64,000 bases of DNA from Ignavibacteriota bacterium (GCA_026390735.1 JAPLFJ010000038.1:5062-69061), one strand, 5' to 3'. Shown: positions 2,232-31,090, counted from the first letter of the stretch. Translations and numbers: made by a program. The notes: generated from the letters alone by a model not told the origin.

Positions 2232-3788
2232 ATGGGAACTTCAAAATTTAAGAATGAGCCGTTTACTGATTTCACGGATAAGAAAAACAGAAAAGCATTT
2301 GAAAATGCTCTGGAAGAAGTAAGACAGAGATTCAACAAGGAATATCCTCTCGTAATAGGCGGAGAGAAATTATTCACAGACGATAAATTACGTTCATACA
2401 ATCCTTCAAAACCTGATGAAGTACTCGGTACTTTCCAGAAAGCAACAGTTGAGCAGGCACTTCACGCTGTAGAAACAGCAAACGCTAAGTTTTGTGAATG
2501 GAAACTTGTTTCACCGAATAAACGTGCCGAATATCTTTTCAAAGCAGCAAAGATAATGAGAAAGAGAAAACATTTGTTCTCTGCGATGATGGTTTACGAA
2601 GTCGGCAAGAACTGGGCAGAAGCAGACGGCGATACGGCAGAAGCGATTGACTTCATGGAATTCTATGCAAGAGAAATGATAAGATACAGTGAAGACCAGC
2701 CGTTAACAAAACTTCCCGGTGAAAAGAATAAACTTGTTTATTTACCGCTTGGTGTCGGGCTTGTTATTCCGCCATGGAACTTCCCACTCGCTATTTTAGC
2801 AGGTATGGCAACAGCCTCGATAGTAACGGGTAACACAGTAGTACTTAAACCATCGAGTGACTCCCCTGCAATTGCACAGATGTTCGTAGAACTTATGGAA
2901 GAAGTAAAACTTCCTAAGGGTGTGCTTAATTTCGTAACAGGCGGCGGTGGTACGATTGGTGATGTGCTTGTACAACATCATTTAATAAGGTACATATCTT
3001 TCACAGGTTCGATGGAAGTCGGATTAAGGATAAACGAACTTGCAGCAAAGAAACAGCAGCATCAGATATGGATTAAGAGGGTTGTTGCCGAAATGGGCGG
3101 CAAGGATACAATGGTTATCGATAAGGATTTACACAGTTTTGATGATGCAGTGCTCGGAACGATTCAGGCAGCATTCGGATTCCAGGGACAGAAATGTTCT
3201 GCGTGTTCGAGAGTTGTTGTTGACGAGAGTATTTACGATAAATTCTGCGAAGCGCTTGTAACAAGAGCAGGAACACTCAGAGTCGGAGAAACAAAAGACA
3301 ATCCGAATATGGGTCCTGTCATCAATGCAGCCTCAAAGAATAAAATAATGGATTACATACATACAGCAGTAAAAGAAGGCGGAAAGATAATTCACGGCGG
3401 TAATGAAATCGAAGGCGGATATTTTATAGAACCTACTATCATCAGGGATGTAAAGCCATTCGATACCATTTCACAGGAAGAAATATTCGGACCTGTACTT
3501 GCAGTGATTAAATCACCAAACTTTGACGAATCGCTGAAGATTGCGAACAACACAGTGTTCGGATTAACTGGTGCTGCATATTCCAGCAGCAAAAAGAAGT
3601 TGCAAAAAGCGGATGAGGAATTTTTCGTAGGAAATTTGTATCTTAACAGGAAATGCACAGGAGCTTTGGTCGGAGTTCATCCGTTTGGCGGTTTTAACAT
3701 GAGCGGAACAGACTCAAAAGCTGGTGGCAGGGATTATTTATTACTGTTCATGCAGGCAAAACTTTCAAGCAAAAAAATCATTAAATAA
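2232..3788 (+). CDS. rocA: 1-pyrroline-5-carboxylate (L-glutamate gamma-semialdehyde) dehydrogenase
   Basis: 518 aa aldehyde dehydrogenase. NEPFTDFT N-terminus, AEMGGKD general base, GQKCSA catalytic Cys and FGGFNMSGTDSKAGG C-terminus, collinear with Bacillus RocA as I recall it. Confidence 0.85.
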   Translation: MGTSKFKNEPFTDFTDKKNRKAFENALEEVRQRFNKEYPLVIGGEKLFTDDKLRSYNPSKPDEVLGTFQKATVEQALHAVETANAKFCEWKLVSPNKRAEYLFKAAKIMRKRKHLFSAMMVYEVGKNWAEADGDTAEAIDFMEFYAREMIRYSEDQPLTKLPGEKNKLVYLPLGVGLVIPPWNFPLAILAGMATASIVTGNTVVLKPSSDSPAIAQMFVELMEEVKLPKGVLNFVTGGGGTIGDVLVQHHLIRYISFTGSMEVGLRINELAAKKQQHQIWIKRVVAEMGGKDTMVIDKDLHSFDDAVLGTIQAAFGFQGQKCSACSRVVVDESIYDKFCEALVTRAGTLRVGETKDNPNMGPVINAASKNKIMDYIHTAVKEGGKIIHGGNEIEGGYFIEPTIIRDVKPFDTISQEEIFGPVLAVIKSPNFDESLKIANNTVFGLTGAAYSSSKKKLQKADEEFFVGNLYLNRKCTGALVGVHPFGGFNMSGTDSKAGGRDYLLLFMQAKLSSKKIIK

Positions 3789-23534: not shown

Positions 23535-23567
23535 AAAAGCCCGTTATTATAAATAACGGGCTTTTTT
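23535..23567 (+). terminator. Rho-independent terminator
   Basis: aaaagcccgttat-tataa-ataacgggctttttt. Confidence 0.85.
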
Positions 23568-23589: not shown

Positions 23590-23616
23590 GTCTTTCCAGC
23601 GAAAGCTGGAATCCAG
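23590..23616. repeat. 27-nt hairpin repeat, copy A (left border of AT-rich block)
   Basis: gtctttccagcgaaagctggaatccag. 24/27 identical to the reverse complement of 29510-29536. Two of the three differences are compensatory within the stem. Confidence 0.85.
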
Positions 23617-23627
23617 ATTGTATATTT

Positions 23628-25658
23628 TTACCTAGCTATTGTATAAGACATTAATTCTTTTTCAGTTTCAAAATTAGATTGAGTAATAGCCGACCTAACT
23701 AAAACCAAACCAATATCGGGAGCATAATATTCTTTATAATAATCTTTACCAATGACCAAACAATTATAAAAAGTCCCCGCACTAGTAATTACTCTTTCTT
23801 CATATCCTAAAAATCTTAATTGAAAGCCATAGACTATCCATTTAGTAAGACCGTCCAAAGGAAAGGCAATTTTAGTATAAGAATATTCACCTATCATTTT
23901 ATTGTAACCTTTATAAATTAATTTGTTGTTATCTAATAAATAAGTCCCACTTTCTTTTAAATATACTTGATTTACTTGATAAGCGGAATAATTAATATAA
24001 TAATTTATTAAGACTTTTGCATAATTATTTCCATCATCCTCCCCAAAGACGTCTTCTAAATACGAAGCAGAATTATTTACTTGCCAATATAATAATTTAC
24101 TCCCTATCTTATGAGAAGGAAAATATTTATTGATAATCCGCAAATCATCATCTGACAACTTATATGAAAGTGTTTTAAGTCTTTCTAAGTTAGTTTTGTA
24201 TAATTCTTTTGGTTCAATTTCATATGCTTTTTCATAATATTCATTAGCCTTTTCATAATTCTTTTGTTTATCATAAATAACCCCGATATTATTGTAGGCA
24301 ATACTTGAACTTGGATTTATTCTTATACATTCAAGATAATAATGCAAAGCTTCTTCAACATTCCCGATTTTATCATAGCAATATGCAGTCCGAAATGTAA
24401 TTTTTAAATCTATTACATTATAATCTTTTTCTAATTTTAAATATTCTAAAAGTGCTTTATCGAATGATTTCGATTCATAATACTCGTCTGCATTATCAGA
24501 AATTTTCTCAATTTCTTTCTTTATCTTTAAATCTTCTTGATCTTTAACATAATTTTTTTCCCTATCACTATTAATAATATTATTATCATAAATATTAAAA
24601 CTATATAAATTGTCCGTTAATATATAACAATTGCCATTTGATTGAACTTCTACCGAACGTATATAATCTCCTATAATCAAATCAATCGATTCATATGATT
24701 TACCTCCATCTAATGTTCTGAATAAAAGATTCTCATTTAACCAAATTAACCCAACATCTTTATTAATAAATTTAAATTTTACATTAAAATTATTGTTAAG
24801 CTCTTTAATAGGAATCCAACCAGACCCGCCGTTAGTTGTTTTTAACAAATAACCTTTAAATTCTTCTCCATTAATTATTTTTGTGCAATAAACATATCCA
24901 TTACTCTGATCCAAAAATTGAGGTTCATAAATATCTTGATATTCTTTTAAACCGTTTGCTCTTTCCCAGCTTTCTCCACCATCTTTTGTTTTAAACCAAA
25001 AGACATTACTATAGTTACTGGATTTAAATCTACCTCTGGCTTCTTCAACATTTAATCTTCCATAGCAAAATCCATTATAACTATCTAAGAAATATATTCT
25101 ACAATCGTTTGAAGCAAATTCATCCTTTTTCTTAATCTTTAAAATATTATTAAAATTGAAGAAAAATTGAGAATCCCAATTTCTTCCATAGTCCTTTGAT
25201 TTGTAGATAATATAGTCATCATAATTATTATCCTCAAAATCTATTTTCTTTATTTCGTTACTAAATTTTTCTGGAAACATATATTCGGCCAACCCTTCAG
25301 CCATTTTCCATGATATTCCTCCATCAAAGGACCATAAATAAACATCTCCAACACCATATTCATGGATTAATGCTATGATATTGTCTTTTATGAATAATCG
25401 ATGAAAAATATTCTCTTTGCCATATAATATCTTTATCTCTGAGTAAGTTACGAAATTATCAGAAGATTTAAATAGTCTTGATTTATTAAGACTATCATCT
25501 TCGATTAATAAAAAGCACAGACTATTATTTGATACTTTAATATCTAAGAAACTATCGCTATAAACTGGAATCGGGAGATTAATTGTTCTAATGTTTTGTC
25601 CAAAAGATACTTGACTAATAAACAGCATAACTAATACATAAATCGTTTCTTTCTTCAT
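23628..25658 (-). CDS. Secreted BNR-like beta-propeller + TPR + C-terminal beta-rich domain protein
   Basis: Signal peptide MKKETIYVLVMLFISQVSFGQ (internal Met preferred over track start 25691). Blades SFDGGISW, SKDYGRNW, TKDGGESW, TTNGGSGW and TLDGGKSY. TPR-like segment ALHYYLECIRINPSSSIAYNNIGVIYDKQKNYEKANEYYEKAYEIEP. Confidence 0.7.
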   Translation of the reverse strand: MKKETIYVLVMLFISQVSFGQNIRTINLPIPVYSDSFLDIKVSNNSLCFLLIEDDSLNKSRLFKSSDNFVTYSEIKILYGKENIFHRLFIKDNIIALIHEYGVGDVYLWSFDGGISWKMAEGLAEYMFPEKFSNEIKKIDFEDNNYDDYIIYKSKDYGRNWDSQFFFNFNNILKIKKKDEFASNDCRIYFLDSYNGFCYGRLNVEEARGRFKSSNYSNVFWFKTKDGGESWERANGLKEYQDIYEPQFLDQSNGYVYCTKIINGEEFKGYLLKTTNGGSGWIPIKELNNNFNVKFKFINKDVGLIWLNENLLFRTLDGGKSYESIDLIIGDYIRSVEVQSNGNCYILTDNLYSFNIYDNNIINSDREKNYVKDQEDLKIKKEIEKISDNADEYYESKSFDKALLEYLKLEKDYNVIDLKITFRTAYCYDKIGNVEEALHYYLECIRINPSSSIAYNNIGVIYDKQKNYEKANEYYEKAYEIEPKELYKTNLERLKTLSYKLSDDDLRIINKYFPSHKIGSKLLYWQVNNSASYLEDVFGEDDGNNYAKVLINYYINYSAYQVNQVYLKESGTYLLDNNKLIYKGYNKMIGEYSYTKIAFPLDGLTKWIVYGFQLRFLGYEERVITSAGTFYNCLVIGKDYYKEYYAPDIGLVLVRSAITQSNFETEKELMSYTIAR

Positions 25659-25712
25659 AAGATTATAATATAAATGAGTAAAATTATTCAATAATTCATA
25701 TTTTATTATTAA

Positions 25713-26108
25713 TTAATTGTCATTCAAATTGGATTCTTTAAAACTATTATTTAATTCCCATTCACAGTTTTTATCAACTGGATCATATTTATCTAGCCCT
25801 CTATTATATATTTCGTCAAATACCTCTTCTAAATTAATATGTCGTTCAAAACTAACCCGATAAAGTGTTGCAGGGTTAATTTTGAAATTATAATTTATTG
25901 TTGGTACATATTCCCAAACATCCCCTTTTTGTTCTTTTTCGATATAAACACTTATAGGATTATTATCAAACTGACCCTTAAGAAATATAGAGAAATAATC
26001 GGCATCATTTATTCTTATGTCAAAACGTATTTTACCTATTTTGTCGGAATATTTCTTGGCAAGATAATCTAAATCTAGTCTTTCAATTGAATTCATTTCT
26101 TTGTTCAA
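25713..26108 (-). CDS. Hypothetical protein (131 aa), no motif recognised
   Basis: Long ORF co-oriented with and closely spaced to its neighbours. Very AT-rich. Confidence 0.5.
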   Translation of the reverse strand: MNKEMNSIERLDLDYLAKKYSDKIGKIRFDIRINDADYFSIFLKGQFDNNPISVYIEKEQKGDVWEYVPTINYNFKINPATLYRVSFERHINLEEVFDEIYNRGLDKYDPVDKNCEWELNNSFKESNLNDN

Positions 26109-26161
26109 ATAGTTTGTATTAATTATTCTATTAGTTATTTAACTAAAATCCACAGAAAACA

Positions 26162-27619
26162 TTAATGCTTATACTGTTCTGCTCTAAGCAGTGAAGCAAC
26201 TGTTATTGGTACGATTTCTATTTCGCCGTCTTTATCAAGTCTGCGGATTTCCGTCATTGCATCTTTTGTGAAGTCGAACGAAACGAAGTATCCTTTTATT
26301 CTTCCGTCTCTGCGAATTGCTGTTTGAAATGAATCTATGTCTGGTCTCCCGACTTTATCCATTTGCTTCACCTGAACAGGATAGTATTTGTCTGTATCGC
26401 CGAATAAATCCTTTTCTTCTTTCTTCTTCTTTTCAAGTTCTACGGGATAAAGCTTTCCGTCTATACCAAAGTCACCGGATTTAATTTTATTCGGAATGCC
26501 GGACATATTTGTAAGTTGTCCAAGAGCGATGACGGCCCAGTTCTGAAATTCAAAATGCGGAAGGATTCGAAGGTCTTCTTCAGTTTTCGGAAGATCATCC
26601 ACCCAAAAATCTGTTCCCTCACGAAGTTTATACAATTCATAAAGTCTTTGTCCCATCACACGGCAGGCAGTTGGGGAAATATCCACTCCAATCCATTTAC
26701 GATTTAGTCTTTGAGCGGCAACGAGAGTTGTTCCGCATCCGCAAAAAGCATCAAGAACGACATCACCTTTGTTAGAACTTGCATTTATAATTCTTTCCAT
26801 TAATGCAATTGGTTTTTGTGTAGGATAGCCAAGTCGTTCTTTGGCGGACGGACTAAGAGATTCAATGTCATCCCATAATGTTTGTATTGAAACTCCTTTC
26901 CCATCTTCAAGATATAGTTTTCTTTGCGGAACCGTTCCCGGCTTCGTTTGAACTACTAAACCGTCCTCAATTAATTTATTCATTTTCTCTTTTGAATATC
27001 TCCAATATTTCGATACACCTAATACTTCATAAAAAGGATTGCCTTTCGAACTTCCACCAGGACCAATCATGCTTATAAGTCTATATCTGCGACCATCACT
27101 TTCTTTATATTTATAAAAATTATCGAGATATTCAGAAGTGTACTCTTTAAACATTGGGTTAAATGTATAATCTGTCGTTTTTGTATAAAAGAATATATTA
27201 TCAATATTTGGGCTCCATAATTTACTGCCTTGTCCAAAATTACCTTTTACGGTATTTGCTCTCTTCCAAATTATTTCATTCCTAAAATAATTAAACCCAA
27301 ATATCTCATCAAGCATAATCTTAACGTAATGCGAGGCGTGCCAGTCGCAATGATAATAAAAACTTCCAGTCTTTTTAAGCACACGATAAATCTCACTTAC
27401 TCTCGGTCGCATATAATTAATGTATTCCTGAGCATCGCCAAACCTGTCATTGAAAGCTCTTTTCTCCTGCACGTCTCCCCAGAACACTTCATAATTCCTG
27501 TTGGAATTAAAAGGAGGGTCAATATAGCAAAGGTCAATACTCTCATCGGGCAAATCTTTTAACATCTTGATGTTATCCCCGCAATAAATCGTCTGTGTCT
27601 TTAATTGGTATGAGGTCAT
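26162..27619 (-). CDS. Beta-class N6A/N4C DNA methyltransferase fused to a C-terminal Mrr-type PD-(D/E)xK restriction-endonuclease-like domain
   Basis: Motif IV IDPPFNSN lies near the N-terminus and motif I VLDAFCGCGTTLVAAQRLNRKWIGVDISP comes later (order IV->I, beta class, PF01555-like). The C-terminal approx 150 aa read FEFQNWAVIALG...GDFGIDGKL...YPVQVKQ...KGYFVSFDFTKDA, matching the Mrr_cat pattern (D...QxK). Confidence 0.85.
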   Translation of the reverse strand: MTSYQLKTQTIYCGDNIKMLKDLPDESIDLCYIDPPFNSNRNYEVFWGDVQEKRAFNDRFGDAQEYINYMRPRVSEIYRVLKKTGSFYYHCDWHASHYVKIMLDEIFGFNYFRNEIIWKRANTVKGNFGQGSKLWSPNIDNIFFYTKTTDYTFNPMFKEYTSEYLDNFYKYKESDGRRYRLISMIGPGGSSKGNPFYEVLGVSKYWRYSKEKMNKLIEDGLVVQTKPGTVPQRKLYLEDGKGVSIQTLWDDIESLSPSAKERLGYPTQKPIALMERIINASSNKGDVVLDAFCGCGTTLVAAQRLNRKWIGVDISPTACRVMGQRLYELYKLREGTDFWVDDLPKTEEDLRILPHFEFQNWAVIALGQLTNMSGIPNKIKSGDFGIDGKLYPVELEKKKKEEKDLFGDTDKYYPVQVKQMDKVGRPDIDSFQTAIRRDGRIKGYFVSFDFTKDAMTEIRRLDKDGEIEIVPITVASLLRAEQYKH

Positions 27620-28431
27620 GATACGAAATCGCTTAATTTTAATATTTCTAATTCTTTATAAAAATTATGTTTGTTCTTAATTTGTAAAATTTGATTAGTC
27701 ATATCTTTTTCCAAGAAAACTGAATCAACATAGGGAAAAGCACTTGAAATATAAACATCATTAACATCCGAAGGCTTAGGCTTTCTATGTTTCAAATAGA
27801 ATTTGTAAAATCTAATCAATGTCATAGATTTTAAAGATAAAAACTTATCATAATTTAATGGTTCTCTTAATTTAATCTTATTATCAACAAATTCTTTATA
27901 AATGCCAAATAATATATTATGCATTTCGGAAGTTAGCCAATTATTAATATATCGTTTTTCCAAGAATATATTTTCACTTGGGTAACTATTTGATTTCTTT
28001 ACCATAGCATTGAGCACAAATGGTTTAAGATCTCTATTCCTTTTGAAATTTTCTGAAATAATATTTTGAGTGAATATATCTTTAAATTCCTTATAATAAT
28101 CAGCACCTTTAAGCATATTTACGAAAATTAGTATTGGATCAATTTTATAATTATCGTTTTCATAATTATTAATTTCTTCATCTAATAACATTTCATCGGT
28201 TTTTAATAATATTGTAGGCATAATACTGGTATAACTTATGAATTCTTCGAATATATCTTTACAAATTTCCATTTCCTCAATATTCTTAATCGAATAACAG
28301 AATAATCTCTGCTCTTGTAGGAACTTTGGAACAATAAACGAACCTAATTCCTCTTTGAACTTCAAAAGTTCGCTAATAATACAAGTGTCAACTAAACATA
28401 ACTTATAATATAATCCGCCTAATTCAATCAA
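27616..28431 (-). CDS. Hypothetical protein, tentative PIN-like nuclease with large insert
   Basis: 271 aa. N-terminal CLVDTCIISELL and C-terminal DVNDVYISSAFPYVDSVFLEKD resemble the first and last acidic strands of PIN domains. Stop overlaps the MTase start (ATGA at 27616-27619). Confidence 0.4.
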   Translation of the reverse strand: MIELGGLYYKLCLVDTCIISELLKFKEELGSFIVPKFLQEQRLFCYSIKNIEEMEICKDIFEEFISYTSIMPTILLKTDEMLLDEEINNYENDNYKIDPILIFVNMLKGADYYKEFKDIFTQNIISENFKRNRDLKPFVLNAMVKKSNSYPSENIFLEKRYINNWLTSEMHNILFGIYKEFVDNKIKLREPLNYDKFLSLKSMTLIRFYKFYLKHRKPKPSDVNDVYISSAFPYVDSVFLEKDMTNQILQIKNKHNFYKELEILKLSDFVS

Positions 28432-28449
28432 TTTTTATAATAGCCATAT

Positions 28450-29043
28450 TTAATTAAAATCATCATTTTGCTCTGCGTAATCATTGTCTTCTTTATATTC
28501 CTCAACTAACTGAATTGTAAATTCAACAAGGACTTGTCTTTCATAATCAGTCAAGTATTGTATAAGTTTTTCAAGTTTCTCAATACTTGTATTTCCAATA
28601 AGATTTTCGTCATTGTCTTCCAAGTTTTCACTATTATATGGCGCCGAAGGAATATATTCTATTAGTTGAAATAAATCTTCAATAGTATCAGCACCAATAA
28701 AATCTCTTATCATTTCTTGAATAATTGGTAATTGATCAATTCTATCATCCGTATCTTTTCTTTTAAACTTTCTTCTTGCATGCTTTGGGATTGTTCCTTC
28801 CAAAGTATTTACTTCTGGCTCTATTAATTTATATTCTTCTTCTTTAGGTGATACTTCATCTATAGGCAATTTATCTGCACTCGGTAATTCCTCTTTAGGA
28901 ATCTCAACTTCCTTCCTTAATACCTCTATTGGTAATTCTTCTTCCAATATAAGATTTGAATATTCTAGTTTCTTTCGCTTTATGTATTTAGCAAAACCAA
29001 TAAAGCCCATTGATAGTACTAATATTGCAAATAACTTTTTCAT
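28450..29043 (-). CDS. Membrane-anchored, strongly acidic protein (single N-terminal TM)
   Basis: 197 aa. MKKLFAILVLSMGFIGFA followed by KYIKRKK, then E/D/P-rich sequence with EELP-type repeats. Confidence 0.55.
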   Translation of the reverse strand: MKKLFAILVLSMGFIGFAKYIKRKKLEYSNLILEEELPIEVLRKEVEIPKEELPSADKLPIDEVSPKEEEYKLIEPEVNTLEGTIPKHARRKFKRKDTDDRIDQLPIIQEMIRDFIGADTIEDLFQLIEYIPSAPYNSENLEDNDENLIGNTSIEKLEKLIQYLTDYERQVLVEFTIQLVEEYKEDNDYAEQNDDFN

Positions 29044-29429
29044 AATTGTTTTGTTAAATGTAATAATATTTGTTCAAATAGTGAGTCAAGTGATGGTTTA
29101 AACGTACTTGATTTAGAAAACTCAGGATTTGTTTCGATCAAATTATTTGCGAATCTAATACGCATAATATCGCCTATTGATTTTGAAATTGATTCTATTT
29201 TATTTACAGGGAAATAGAAAGTCTCAAAGTGTTCGTTTTCAAAAACAAAGTAGATTAATAAATTATTTTCGAAGTACAATAATTTATTACTTTTTACTTC
29301 CTTATATGCATGTTCAAAATAATAATCTTTATTTCCTTTTAAATGATTCGTTAGTTCAGTATGAACATCAACATTTAGTAAATGTTTAGATGTTCTACTT
29401 AATAAATCCCATATTTTATCTGCTTTCAT
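29040..29429 (-). CDS. Hypothetical protein (129 aa), first gene of the cassette
   Basis: Stop overlaps the next start (ATGA at 29040-29043). No motif recognised. Confidence 0.5.
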   Translation of the reverse strand: MKADKIWDLLSRTSKHLLNVDVHTELTNHLKGNKDYYFEHAYKEVKSNKLLYFENNLLIYFVFENEHFETFYFPVNKIESISKSIGDIMRIRFANNLIETNPEFSKSSTFKPSLDSLFEQILLHLTKQL

Positions 29430-29509
29430 TTTTGTATTCTTTAATTTATTACAAACTTATGAAATCAATTTCAGTTTTCATTATCATTTCGTGATAATTT
29501 TTAAAGACT

Positions 29510-29536
29510 CTGGATTCCCGCTTTCGCGGGAATGAC
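29510..29536. repeat. 27-nt hairpin repeat, copy B (right border of AT-rich block)
   Basis: ctggattcccgctttcgcgggaatgac, in inverted orientation relative to copy A. Fits ATTCCC-N8-GGGAAT. Confidence 0.85.
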
Positions 29537-29790: not shown

Positions 29791-29822
29791 TTAAATAAAA
29801 GCGCCCCGGGATCCGGGGCGCT
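29789..29822 (-). terminator. GC-rich rho-independent terminator of the FN3-domain gene
   Basis: gcgccccgg-atcc-ggggcgc stem. On the minus strand it is followed by ttttatttaaaag. Confidence 0.8.
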
Positions 29823-29878
29823 TAACTGAATTTGGTGGGTAAAAGTGTTTCTTGTTTTGTCAACCCACCCTATTTTGT

Positions 29879-30496
29879 TTATTGTACTCTGCTTGCGGCT
29901 TCACTCCAGGGTCCGTATCCGTTTCGGTTTGCCGCTCGAACGCGGAAGAAATACCGGACTCCTTTGATGATGTTATCATCTATGAAACTGATTTTTGATG
30001 TTGTTTTGAAATAGAATAATTGTGGAATGTTTGTCAGGTCTGTTGATACTAAACTTTGACCTTTCTGCCACTCGTATGAGTCTGCATTTTTATCCCTTGC
30101 TTTAATTCCGATTAAGAAACCTTCTGCATCGGAATCATCTTCGAGGACGACTGCAAGTACTTCGGTTGGCGGAGGAATTTTGCTTGGGTCTTTGCGGGGT
30201 TTCATTCCATATTCCGCAAGTTTATCAGGTTGGTTTGCATAGATTGCATATGCGAATGTTTCGCATTGGCTTAGCAAACTTTTTGATTCTGAATTCTGGA
30301 GAGATCCTGAATGGCGCGCAATTACAGAGGCAGACTCTGCGGCGTCGATTGCTTCGCCTTTTGTTGTTAAATCTGTGATAGAACTCTGAACATCGGTTGA
30401 TTTTACAGGTTCGCCTGTCCAGTCAGTTGGGTTTTTCTTCATTCCCTGCAGGAATGCGTTTAACCTGTTCAAGGTTTCGAGAATGTACTTTTTCAT
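29879..30496 (-). CDS. Cytoplasmic-looking protein with C-terminal fibronectin type III domain
   Basis: 205 aa. C-terminal ...GVRYFFRVRAANRNGYGPWSEAA is a classic FN3 F/G-strand pattern. No signal peptide. Strong SD (ggaagg) upstream. Markedly higher G+C than its surroundings. Confidence 0.7.
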   Translation of the reverse strand: MKKYILETLNRLNAFLQGMKKNPTDWTGEPVKSTDVQSSITDLTTKGEAIDAAESASVIARHSGSLQNSESKSLLSQCETFAYAIYANQPDKLAEYGMKPRKDPSKIPPPTEVLAVVLEDDSDAEGFLIGIKARDKNADSYEWQKGQSLVSTDLTNIPQLFYFKTTSKISFIDDNIIKGVRYFFRVRAANRNGYGPWSEAASRVQ

Positions 30497-30828
30497 TTTG
30501 TACCTTCCTTCTAAATTAGTTTTTAAAAAAGTTCTTTTAAAATTTACAGTTAAAATTATTCCGTTTAGAATATTTTAAGAGTAAAACTTATTTAGAAACA
30601 CTTGAAACCTTTGAATTCAGTTATAGTTTTTTGTAGTAATAACAAAATATTGTATTAATAATTAATTGTCAATATAAAAAGTTAACTGTTGTTATAATAA
30701 TTATTTATGAATATTCTAATGACAAATCTCAATAATAATAACATTATATTTTCCTAAAAAGACCAACAACATTTTTGTATTTTCCGTTAAAACCGCAAAT
30801 ACAGCGAGGAATCCACTTTATTTCCCAA

Positions 30829-31090
30829 AAATGTGCACATTTTTGGGAACATTTTGCACATTTTTGGGAACATTTTGTATATTGTTCGGAACATTTTGCA
30901 TATTGTTCGGAACATTTTACATATTCTAATTTACAATCGGCAAATTCTAATTTACATTTTGCACTTTCTAAATTACATTTTGCATAATTTTCGGAACATT
31001 TAGCACATTCTAATTTACATTTTGCATATTCTAAATTACATTTTGCACAATCCAAATTACATTTTGCATAATGTTATTTACAATTTAAGT
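30829..31090. repeat. Array of about 12 degenerate 21-bp tandem repeats (core cattttgcaYaWt...)
   Basis: Exact 21-nt register from 30850 to 31080 (30850, 30871, 30892, ... 31060), with partial units at both ends. ORFs are open on both strands, as expected for a simple repeat. Confidence 0.9.

Follow-up and report, generated by a model that had tools for sequence, protein, structure and literature searches.

PrrC is a latent anticodon nuclease embedded in a restriction-modification (R-M) locus, EcoprrI, and is ABC-ATPase-like rather than a PIN protein. Among R-M enzymes, the Type IIC enzyme BtgZI carries an N-terminal methyltransferase (MTase) and, at its C-terminus, a variant of the PD-(D/E)xK nuclease in which Q replaces E, and in typical Type IIG and IIL enzymes the nuclease is N-terminal, the MTase is of the gamma class (NPPY) and a target-recognition domain (TRD) forms the C-terminus (PMC4081073). 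The MTase CcrM has a SAND-like C-terminal domain (PMC6787082). In PIN domains, the acidic quartet consists of an Asp that ends strand 1, a Glu carried by the helix that follows strand 2, and further acidic residues behind strands 3 and 4, the Glu being the hallmark of the VapC-like group, and PIN toxins have been linked to Type I R-M loci, with none found beside Type II systems (PMC5499597). The present article concerns a block of four genes, w129, w197, w271 and w485, which occupies positions 26162-29429 on the minus strand of a 64,000-nucleotide (nt) stretch of DNA from an Ignavibacteriota metagenome-assembled genome, referred to below as the window, and whose products are compared below with these proteins (Table 1).

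A preliminary description of this DNA had presented the four genes as a candidate uncharacterised defence or R-M-like cassette. The four minus-strand open reading frames (ORFs) that it delimited are all present, as are two ATGA stop/start overlaps, one at 29043-29040 and the other at 27619-27616, and a gap of 18 nt between w197 and w271 (28432-28449), and the defence or R-M flavour that it ascribed to the block was judged correct. It was also right that no named defence system is involved, in that no system model of PADLOC-DB v2 matches the block beyond the MTase. The unity of the cassette did not hold. A four-gene system was rejected on distribution, given the stand-alone spread of w485, the orphan status of w129 and w197, and the boundaries of DNA homology, which ends at the w271-w485 pair or at w485 alone. 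The block is probably a mosaic patch of a defence island assembled from independently distributed parts, and its genes, acquired independently of one another, were compacted into their present tight spacing.

Under a codon model trained on the long genes of the window (minimum of the training genes 0.149; maximum of spurious ORFs 0.087), each of the four ORFs has its highest score in the annotated frame, with values of 0.293 for w197, 0.154 for w271 and a borderline 0.112 for w129; by our own estimate, the chance of a 129-codon open frame at about 25% GC is roughly 1e-5. The start codon of w271 is TTG, at the position where its homologues have ATG. Between 24 and 30 kb the GC content falls to a trough (0.26-0.30 against about 0.36), and within the six-gene run to which the block belongs, w485 has a GC content of 37.6% as against 24-29% for the other five genes, a split that fits separate origins of w485 and its neighbours. 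No match was found in PADLOC-DB v2 for w271, w197 or the two further genes of the run, w131 and w687, and w129 gave one chance-level match (Cas7fv, E 0.005).

The methyltransferase-nuclease fusion w485

The product of w485 matches the Pfam family N6_N4_Mtase (PF01555) over amino acids (aa) 28-321 (E 1.9e-49, 169 bits against a cutoff of 26.7) and Mrr_cat (PF04471) over aa 379-461, the latter marginally (22.4 bits against a cutoff of 21). Both scores exceed their cutoffs, in agreement with the earlier call of an MTase fused to an Mrr-type nuclease (MTase::Mrr). The reported motif order was likewise recovered, DPPF (aa 34-37) preceding FCGCGT (aa 292-297), and the nuclease motifs GDFGIDG and VQVK occur without variation throughout the family. 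In an alignment of 37 diverse homologues, DPPF, FCGCGT, E357, D383, G385, D387, G388, Q416 and K418 are invariant; because these motif residues are retained throughout, both active sites look maintained. MTase and nuclease are fused in a single polypeptide, and no recurrent neighbour family in 80 loci points to a separate restriction endonuclease gene. PADLOC, NCBIfam and PHROGs recognise w485 only as a DNA methyltransferase, NCBI labels its homologues 'DNA methyltransferase' or 'restriction endonuclease', and PF04471 is precomputed for many of the close ones. The closest solved structure is CcrM (6PBD, E 2.3e-22), matched through the MTase domain only.

The w485 family is large and widely dispersed. 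A homologue search returned at least 8000 matches, of which the best 120 are full length and 57-78% identical, and a scan of one genome per species found relatives at 52-78% identity in at least 574 genomes, spanning Ignavibacteria, Acidobacteriota, Planctomycetota, Verrucomicrobiota, Gemmatimonadota, Armatimonadota and lineages of the Candidate Phyla Radiation (CPR). The patchiness of this occurrence across phyla suggests horizontal transfer. Gene neighbourhoods were surveyed in the best 80 loci from the at least 574 genomes, and not one of the 80 carries a homologue of w271, w197 or w129. The 299 neighbouring proteins in these loci fall into 277 clusters with no recurrent partner, and the flanking genes vary in size and orientation. 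DNA homology between the window and an Ignavibacteria locus (L004; loci are referred to by such numbers only where they must be told apart) extends over 26161-27621, which is the w485 ORF alone. Since there is no recurrent neighbour and this homology is limited to the ORF, w485 is regarded as a self-contained unit.

Two side observations concern the mobility and architecture of the family. In two loci from unrelated genomes (L009 and L013), a transposase-like gene, of insertion sequence type IS1 as judged by eye, overlaps or abuts the start of the MTase::Mrr gene, which hints at one possible route of gene movement. Separately, MTases of Streptomyces and Mycobacterium phages (e.g. MW365953.1) align to aa 11-394 of w485, beyond the Pfam MTase domain, and lack the remainder of the Mrr-type domain; they may have a truncated or alternative C-terminal module.

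The recognition region of w485 has a history of its own. DNA homology of the window to four loci (L001, L005, L006 and L010) is interrupted between about 26842 and 27272, and the variable block at about aa 115-255 sits between DPPF and FCGCGT, the TRD position in beta-class enzymes. Across the N-terminus, the TRD and the C-terminus, identity to w485 amounts to 98/32/94% in L001 and to 64/75/55% in L009, a locus of Pirellulales, so that within the TRD block close Ignavibacteria relatives are 32-47% identical to w485 and the Pirellulales homologue is 75% identical. In these alignments the TRD evolves as a separate cassette that recombines apart from the framework, and such mosaicism, combined with patchy cross-phylum spread, is typical of R-M enzymes under diversifying selection.

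These features make w485 a widely transferred, self-contained gene and a candidate single-chain R-M enzyme. In the mechanism proposed here, the MTase domain, with its internal target-recognition region, would methylate a specific site, the product probably being N6-methyladenine (m6A) to judge from the DPPF motif, and the Mrr-type domain, which lacks the DNA-reading domain of Mrr, would borrow the recognition module of the MTase and cut unmodified DNA near the site, in the way of Type IIC enzymes with the BtgZI layout. Modification-dependent cutting is unlikely, because it would be self-destructive beside the enzyme's own MTase. If the MTase::Mrr fusion does cut DNA, it would represent a very common single-gene restriction enzyme with a rare MTase-first layout and a beta-class methylase, and its shuffled recognition modules would help in understanding specificity and perhaps also in engineering it.

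The alternative that survives best, a minority possibility that deserves serious weight, is that w485 is a DNA MTase only, whether orphan, regulatory or anti-restriction in role, with a C-terminal nuclease-fold domain that binds DNA or dimerises and does not cut. CcrM, which is the closest relative of solved structure, depends on a C-terminal domain that binds DNA and is not catalytic (PMC6787082); the PADLOC models see just an MTase, and the alignment of phage MTases stops at aa 394. A lone MTase, moreover, needs no partner, and would also account for the stand-alone distribution. On the other hand, E357, D383, D387 and Q416-x-K418 are invariant across phyla, which is expected of a working active site and not of a scaffold, and TRD shuffling with patchy spread is the pattern seen in R-M enzymes. 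The analogy itself is also loose: a nuclease-like reading of the CcrM C-terminal domain was considered and is contradicted by its SAND-like character (PMC6787082), so that CcrM gives no more than an approximate parallel for a DNA-binding accessory domain. A candidate single-chain R-M enzyme accordingly remains the preferred description of w485.

The w271 family: predicted fold and genomic company

No match to w271 was found in Pfam, NCBIfam, PADLOC v2 or PHROGs. A word-indexed search found only five close relatives, and an exhaustive profile search recovered 340 representative clusters at E <= 0.001 (157 of them at E <= 1e-10), nearly all of about 270 aa and matched over the full length. No relatives were found in phage or plasmid collections, and a comparison of 92 members with PADLOC gave no consistent match. 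Among the 92 aligned members, D15, E53, E86 and D225 are invariant and T16, P72, D222, P233, Y234 and E241 are conserved in at least 90%, giving the consensus LLDTN...SDVxDIxIS..PYVD..ITE.

Structure prediction depended on the depth of the alignment. With five sequences, AlphaFold returned a predicted local distance difference test score (pLDDT) of 41.5 for w271, and with 92 sequences a pLDDT of 94.8 and a predicted template modelling score (pTM) of 0.92. The latter AF2 model begins with a strand (7-14), two helices, a second strand (42-46), helices containing E53 and a strand at 73-76; it continues with a helix carrying E86, a strand at 100-103 and an all-helical insert of about 110 aa (104-212), and ends with a helix bearing D222 and D225 followed by two further strand-helix units. 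In the model, this order of secondary-structure elements is the PIN order, and the 92 sequences display the VapC-like acidic quartet, with strand positions taken from the model.

Direct matches to PIN proteins are recurrent and weak. PF01850 is matched by 4 of the 92 members, with a best E of 0.0012, and w271 itself has no Pfam match. In a profile search of the PDB, about ten VapC, Fcf1 and FitB chains align to positions 12-57 of w271 (beta1-DTN...E) with E values of 0.06-2.4, and excising the insert before the search brought no PIN match better than E 0.06. The best biologically coherent Foldseek matches of the model are the PIN domains of VapC2, Utp24, Utp23, VapC11, VapC20 and SMG6; for VapC2, Utp24 and Utp23 the Foldseek probability is 0.6-0.69 and the template modelling (TM) scores normalised to the target are 0.28-0.40, and none reaches E <= 0.001. 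Removal of the insert also produced a match to the small GTPase Rheb (E 2e-5), starting at Rheb residue 48, which was rejected as a coincidence, since the P-loop region is not included and no other Ras-family chain matches. From the acidic pattern, the order of elements in the model and the weak recurrent matches, we consider the w271 family PIN-like with fairly good confidence, and the PIN-like guess made earlier for the 271-aa protein was counted correct. On this sequence evidence, the family comprises undescribed PIN-like putative nucleases that are missing from four profile libraries.

Two loci with a w271 relative, L001 and L003, share DNA homology with the window. In the window and in L001, w271 overlaps the start of the MTase::Mrr gene by ATGA. 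The homology to L001 and L003 spans the w271-w485 pair and ends within about 40 nt upstream of w271, and in L001 an unrelated 205-aa gene, 237 nt upstream of the w271 homologue, takes the place of w129 and w197. L003 encodes a protein 86% identical to w271, and its MTase::Mrr gene is reduced to codons 1-46 and 460-485. Between these in-frame 5' and 3' stubs lies a 2054-bp insert (32.8% GC), encoding an MvaI/BcnI-family endonuclease (E 6.7e-38) and its methylase and replacing MTase::Mrr codons 47-459, so that one R-M unit has displaced the interior of another (L003 939-3194). The w271 gene of L003 is intact, with an omega of 0.11 between the window and L003, a value that denotes purifying selection. 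Because it is intact under such constraint where the MTase::Mrr gene is destroyed, w271 has been kept without w485.

Beyond these loci the family keeps varied company. A scan of metagenome loci with a 13-sequence w271 alignment yielded four loci. In L002, the w271 homologue lies directly downstream of a 263-aa DCD protein (2811-3602; PF10539, E 1.1e-19). The C-terminal half of this protein is matched both by the PADLOC candidate PDC-S69 (E 1.6e-32) and by a PD-DExK model; by its domains, the protein looks like a Type IV-style modification-dependent nuclease. DCD (PF10539) belongs to the PUA/EVE-like class of modified-base readers. More distant members of the w271 family come after other genes: in L088 after a Type III Mod (E 1e-165), PDC-S02 and Res (E 5e-184), in L091 after an MmeI-type enzyme and a protein with a weak likeness to PDC-S32, in L099 after a Type IIG enzyme (E 5e-149), in L094 after a pair of Thoeris ThsA (E 1.6e-100) and ThsB, and in L087 after a SIR2_2-TPR protein. 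In L089, a VapC-like gene, recognised by eye only, and an AAA ATPase gene lie upstream of a w271-family gene that is itself frameshifted. The contexts of L084, L093 and L095-L098 are short, and the P0005 contig is uninformative. As a side observation, a 392-aa protein without a family match is encoded downstream of the w271-family gene in L085 (7085-8263) and L086 (1366-2544), and by eye only it contains an R-x4-H (HEPN-like) motif.

A recognised defence gene stands within two genes of w271 in about 7 of 10 independent contexts with readable flanks. A rough estimate puts the chance expectation for a defence neighbour at a few percent, far below what the w271 contexts show. The w271 family tracks defence genes, especially restriction enzymes. 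Co-occurrence is borne out for w271 beside defence genes and fails for the four-gene set as a unit. The association of w271 with Type II R-M systems is not described in the PIN classification, where PIN toxins were linked to Type I loci and none was reported next to Type II systems (PMC5499597). No upstream gene is conserved across the loci in the manner of a VapB-type antitoxin.

Taken as a whole, the family would be a nuclease effector of defence islands, working either alone or in an accessory capacity, a role that we infer from sequence and neighbourhood. The product of w271 would be a metal-dependent nuclease of VapC-like PIN fold that carries a large insert of helices, and may act as a latent RNase-type effector or an addiction toxin, alone or beside a neighbouring defence gene. 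All enzymatic activities proposed for the block, and any defence phenotype, we likewise infer from its observed domain content, catalytic-residue conservation and distribution.

The four genes as a system or as independent parts

As had been reported, the w197 product has a single N-terminal hydrophobic segment (aa 5-21) and an acidic remainder, with a pI of 4.2 and 45 D+E against 19 K+R. Both w129 and w197 form singleton clusters among about 15 billion proteins. A search for remote homologues of w197 returned only itself, no tblastn match to either gene was found in 83 loci, the DNA of w129-w197 had no match in the phage collection, and comparison with profile libraries gave nothing meaningful, the only two hits being weak, chance-level ones to w129. 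Both genes are orphans of this lineage to which no role can be assigned, tied to w271 and w485 by proximity alone.

Several points weigh against the mosaic interpretation or against the identifications on which it draws. The ATGA overlap of w271 and w485 is kept in three loci (the window, L001 and, ancestrally, L003), which could mean functional coupling in this lineage, and no terminator lies between the genes of the run, which are probably co-transcribed. Readable neighbourhoods of the w271 family number only about 15, several of them short. No homologue of w129 was found, and this absence is weakly supported, as a concatenated w129+w197 query missed w129 itself. The Mrr_cat score of w485 is barely above its cutoff, and the C-terminal domain alone has no solved sequence relative in the PDB. 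The PIN matches of w271 remain sub-threshold, in the PDB search at the E values given above and in Foldseek at E > 0.1, and an hhalign comparison of the family with one VapC gave a probability of 3.6%, which is uninformative.

One challenge comes from the w271-w485 pair, which might be a genuine two-gene system of this Ignavibacteria lineage with a PIN-like partner, for example a PrrC-like latent RNase set off by inhibition of the R-M enzyme, or a stabilising toxin. The conserved ATGA overlap would support such a system, as would DNA homology that covers exactly the two genes, and elsewhere relatives of w271 share their orientation with directly adjoining genes for R-M enzymes (MmeI-type, Type IIG, Type III). 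Its standing is nevertheless weakened by the 80 surveyed MTase::Mrr loci, by the survival of an intact w271 under purifying selection in L003 and by relatives of w271 that adjoin Thoeris, SIR2 or no recognisable partner. As w271 persists alone, its neighbours vary and the 80 loci lack it, a partner-specific interaction is hard to sustain, and the two-gene system appears unlikely.

A wider unit, in which the four genes, or the six-gene run, form one lineage-specific operon and a single novel defence system, fares worse still. The genes are co-oriented and closely packed, with two ATGA overlaps and the 18-nt gap; a strong terminator lies upstream of the run and none within it; and a candidate promoter box and an inverted pair of hairpins accompany the low-GC block. 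The box, taagtttg, is present 22 nt before the w129 ATG as had been noted, as a consensus match only. Since there is no convincing minus-strand terminator between 29799 and 23565, a transcript of six genes is possible, and it may run w129-w197-w271-w485-w131-w687. Against this, w129 and w197 have no detected homologue and so offer zero evidence of co-occurrence, L001 has w271 and w485 with an unrelated 205-aa gene upstream in place of the other two, w485 differs in GC content, and each recognisable part occurs independently elsewhere. A single operon-encoded system is therefore quite improbable, and close gene packing with stop/start overlaps in a defence island is insufficient alone to show one system.

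Least probable of all is a classical VapBC-type pair with w271 as toxin and w197 as antitoxin. The VapC-like acidic-residue pattern of w271, the upstream gene just 18 nt away and one relative with a 66-aa gene upstream speak for it. Against it, the upstream partner is not conserved, being a 197-aa protein here, an unrelated one of 205 aa in L001, the DCD-nuclease in L002 and a member of an R-M or Thoeris system in other loci, and w197 is a membrane-anchored orphan unlike any VapB. The mosaic of independently distributed parts remains the favoured reading of the block.

Flanking features and comparison with described systems

The features of the block and its surroundings are collected in Table 1.

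Table 1. Coordinates of the four genes, the domains of w485 and the flanking elements (positions in the window)
Feature	Position	Strand	Remarks
w129	29040-29429	-	129 aa; orphan; coding probable but borderline
w197	28450-29043	-	197 aa; pI 4.5; orphan; hydrophobic N-terminal segment and acidic tail
w271	27616-28431	-	271 aa; PIN-like (VapC-type) putative nuclease family, helical insert
w485	26162-27619	-	485 aa; beta-class DNA MTase fused to C-terminal Mrr-type PD-(D/E)xK domain
MTase domain of w485	26657-27538	-	aa 28-321; motif IV DPPF before motif I FCGCGT
Target-recognition region of w485	26855-27277	-	about aa 115-255; exchanged independently of framework
Mrr-type nuclease domain of w485	26237-26572	-	about aa 350-461; E357, D383, D387, Q416-x-K418
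TAnnTTTG (Bacteroidota-type -7 box) consensus match	29452-29459	-	taagtttg, 22 nt before w129 ATG
Strong intrinsic terminator after w205	29799-29823	-	11-bp stem, 9 GC pairs, then T-run; upstream end of transcription unit
Bidirectional terminator	23535-23565	.	first convincing minus-strand terminator downstream of w129
Hairpin element GTCATTCCCGCGAAAGCGGGAATCC, upstream copy of inverted pair	29512-29536	-	brackets low-GC block
Hairpin element, degenerate inverted copy	23590-23614	+	just after w687 stop codon

The genes w131 and w687 (23628-26108) continue the low-GC run of the four genes in the same direction and without an intervening terminator. The w687 product contains TPR and BNR/Ycf48-like repeats; no homologue of w131 (131 aa) was found, and its exact sequence is not called in the protein collection. 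A hairpin element of about 30 nt (TGTCATTCCCGCGAAAGCGGGAATCCAGAG) forms an inverted pair around the low-GC six-gene run (23628-29429), and further copies occur in L002 (4556-4578), 48 nt after the w271 homologue, and in L080 (9938-9960). It may be an element of the REP (repetitive extragenic palindromic) or MITE (miniature inverted-repeat transposable element) kind, or an island boundary.

Upstream of the block, w205 (29879-30496) encodes a protein with a fibronectin type III C-terminus and weak matches to phage minor-tail PHROGs (E 5e-4), and a weak relative of it lies about 3 kb upstream of the MTase::Mrr gene of L004. The possibility that w205 corresponds to the 205-aa gene of L001, as a conserved neighbour, was rejected because BLASTP detected no similarity. 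The intergenic region upstream of w205 holds a tandem array (30834-31086) with a 21-nt period, about 12 copies and a unit of about ACATTTTGCATATTCTAATTT, which produces a spurious Cys/Lys-rich ORF (30744-31055; coding score -0.15). Kinship with an array in L003 (3420-3528), near its w271/R-M module, was also rejected, as the period is common to both and the unit sequences are unrelated.

A more ambitious interpretation, which we regard as speculative and rather unlikely in its full form, would make the w271 family a new anti-phage or defence-island effector. Its members would be RNases of the PIN fold whose helical insert resembles a sensor, and they would be encoded, time and again, immediately next to restriction enzymes (Type II, IIG, IIL, III and MTase::Mrr) and other immune genes. 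They would follow the logic of PrrC, as a latent second line of nuclease attack that is triggered, or kills the cell, once the adjoining defence enzyme is lost or inhibited. On this interpretation w485, for its part, would exemplify an uncharacterised beta-class architecture of single-chain restriction enzyme, very common and with exchangeable specificity. Were the family a working defence or guard nuclease, a compact single-gene module would be added to the anti-phage repertoire, and the position of w271 beside restriction enzymes would offer a testable case of layered immunity outside the classic PrrC example.

Comparison with VapC-like PIN proteins (PF01850) reveals both kinship and distance. 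The w271 product shares with them an N-terminal strand that closes with D-T-N/C, the Glu of the helix behind strand 2, further acidic residues close to the C-terminus and an alternating beta-alpha core; it differs in having roughly double the length, in the insertion of about 110 helical residues where strand 4 leads to the last acidic motif, in lacking a conserved antitoxin neighbour and in falling below the thresholds of Pfam, NCBIfam, PADLOC and PHROGs. The likeness to PrrC concerns position, since the w271 family consists of putative RNase-type effectors directly beside R-M enzymes in several unrelated genomes. Unlike PrrC, w271 is predicted to be PIN-like, and its relatives also adjoin systems other than R-M. 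A PrrC-like guard role would be, by analogy, an attractive hypothesis.

For w485, the catalytic domain belongs to the same family as that of the Type IV enzyme Mrr of E. coli (PF04471), with the motifs GDxGIDG and VQxK, whereas the N-terminal reader of methylated DNA found in Mrr is absent and the nuclease is joined to an MTase. [quoted passage not shown] With MmeI, BpuSI and Eco57I, w485 shares the combination of methylation, recognition and a PD-(D/E)xK nuclease in one polypeptide and the swapping of modules between relatives; compared with MmeI- or BpuSI-like Type IIG enzymes, its domain order is reversed and its MTase is of the beta class, which sets it apart from the typical IIG layout. 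The BtgZI enzyme is closer, since in both cases an MTase precedes the nuclease, the active site is of the D...QxK variant, no separate specificity subunit is present and the gene can stand alone. The MTase of BtgZI is alpha-class, whereas that of w485 is beta-class (DPPF before FxGxG) with an internal TRD, and cleavage by w485 is a prediction. Overall, w485 most resembles a Type IIC, BtgZI-like single-chain R-M enzyme.

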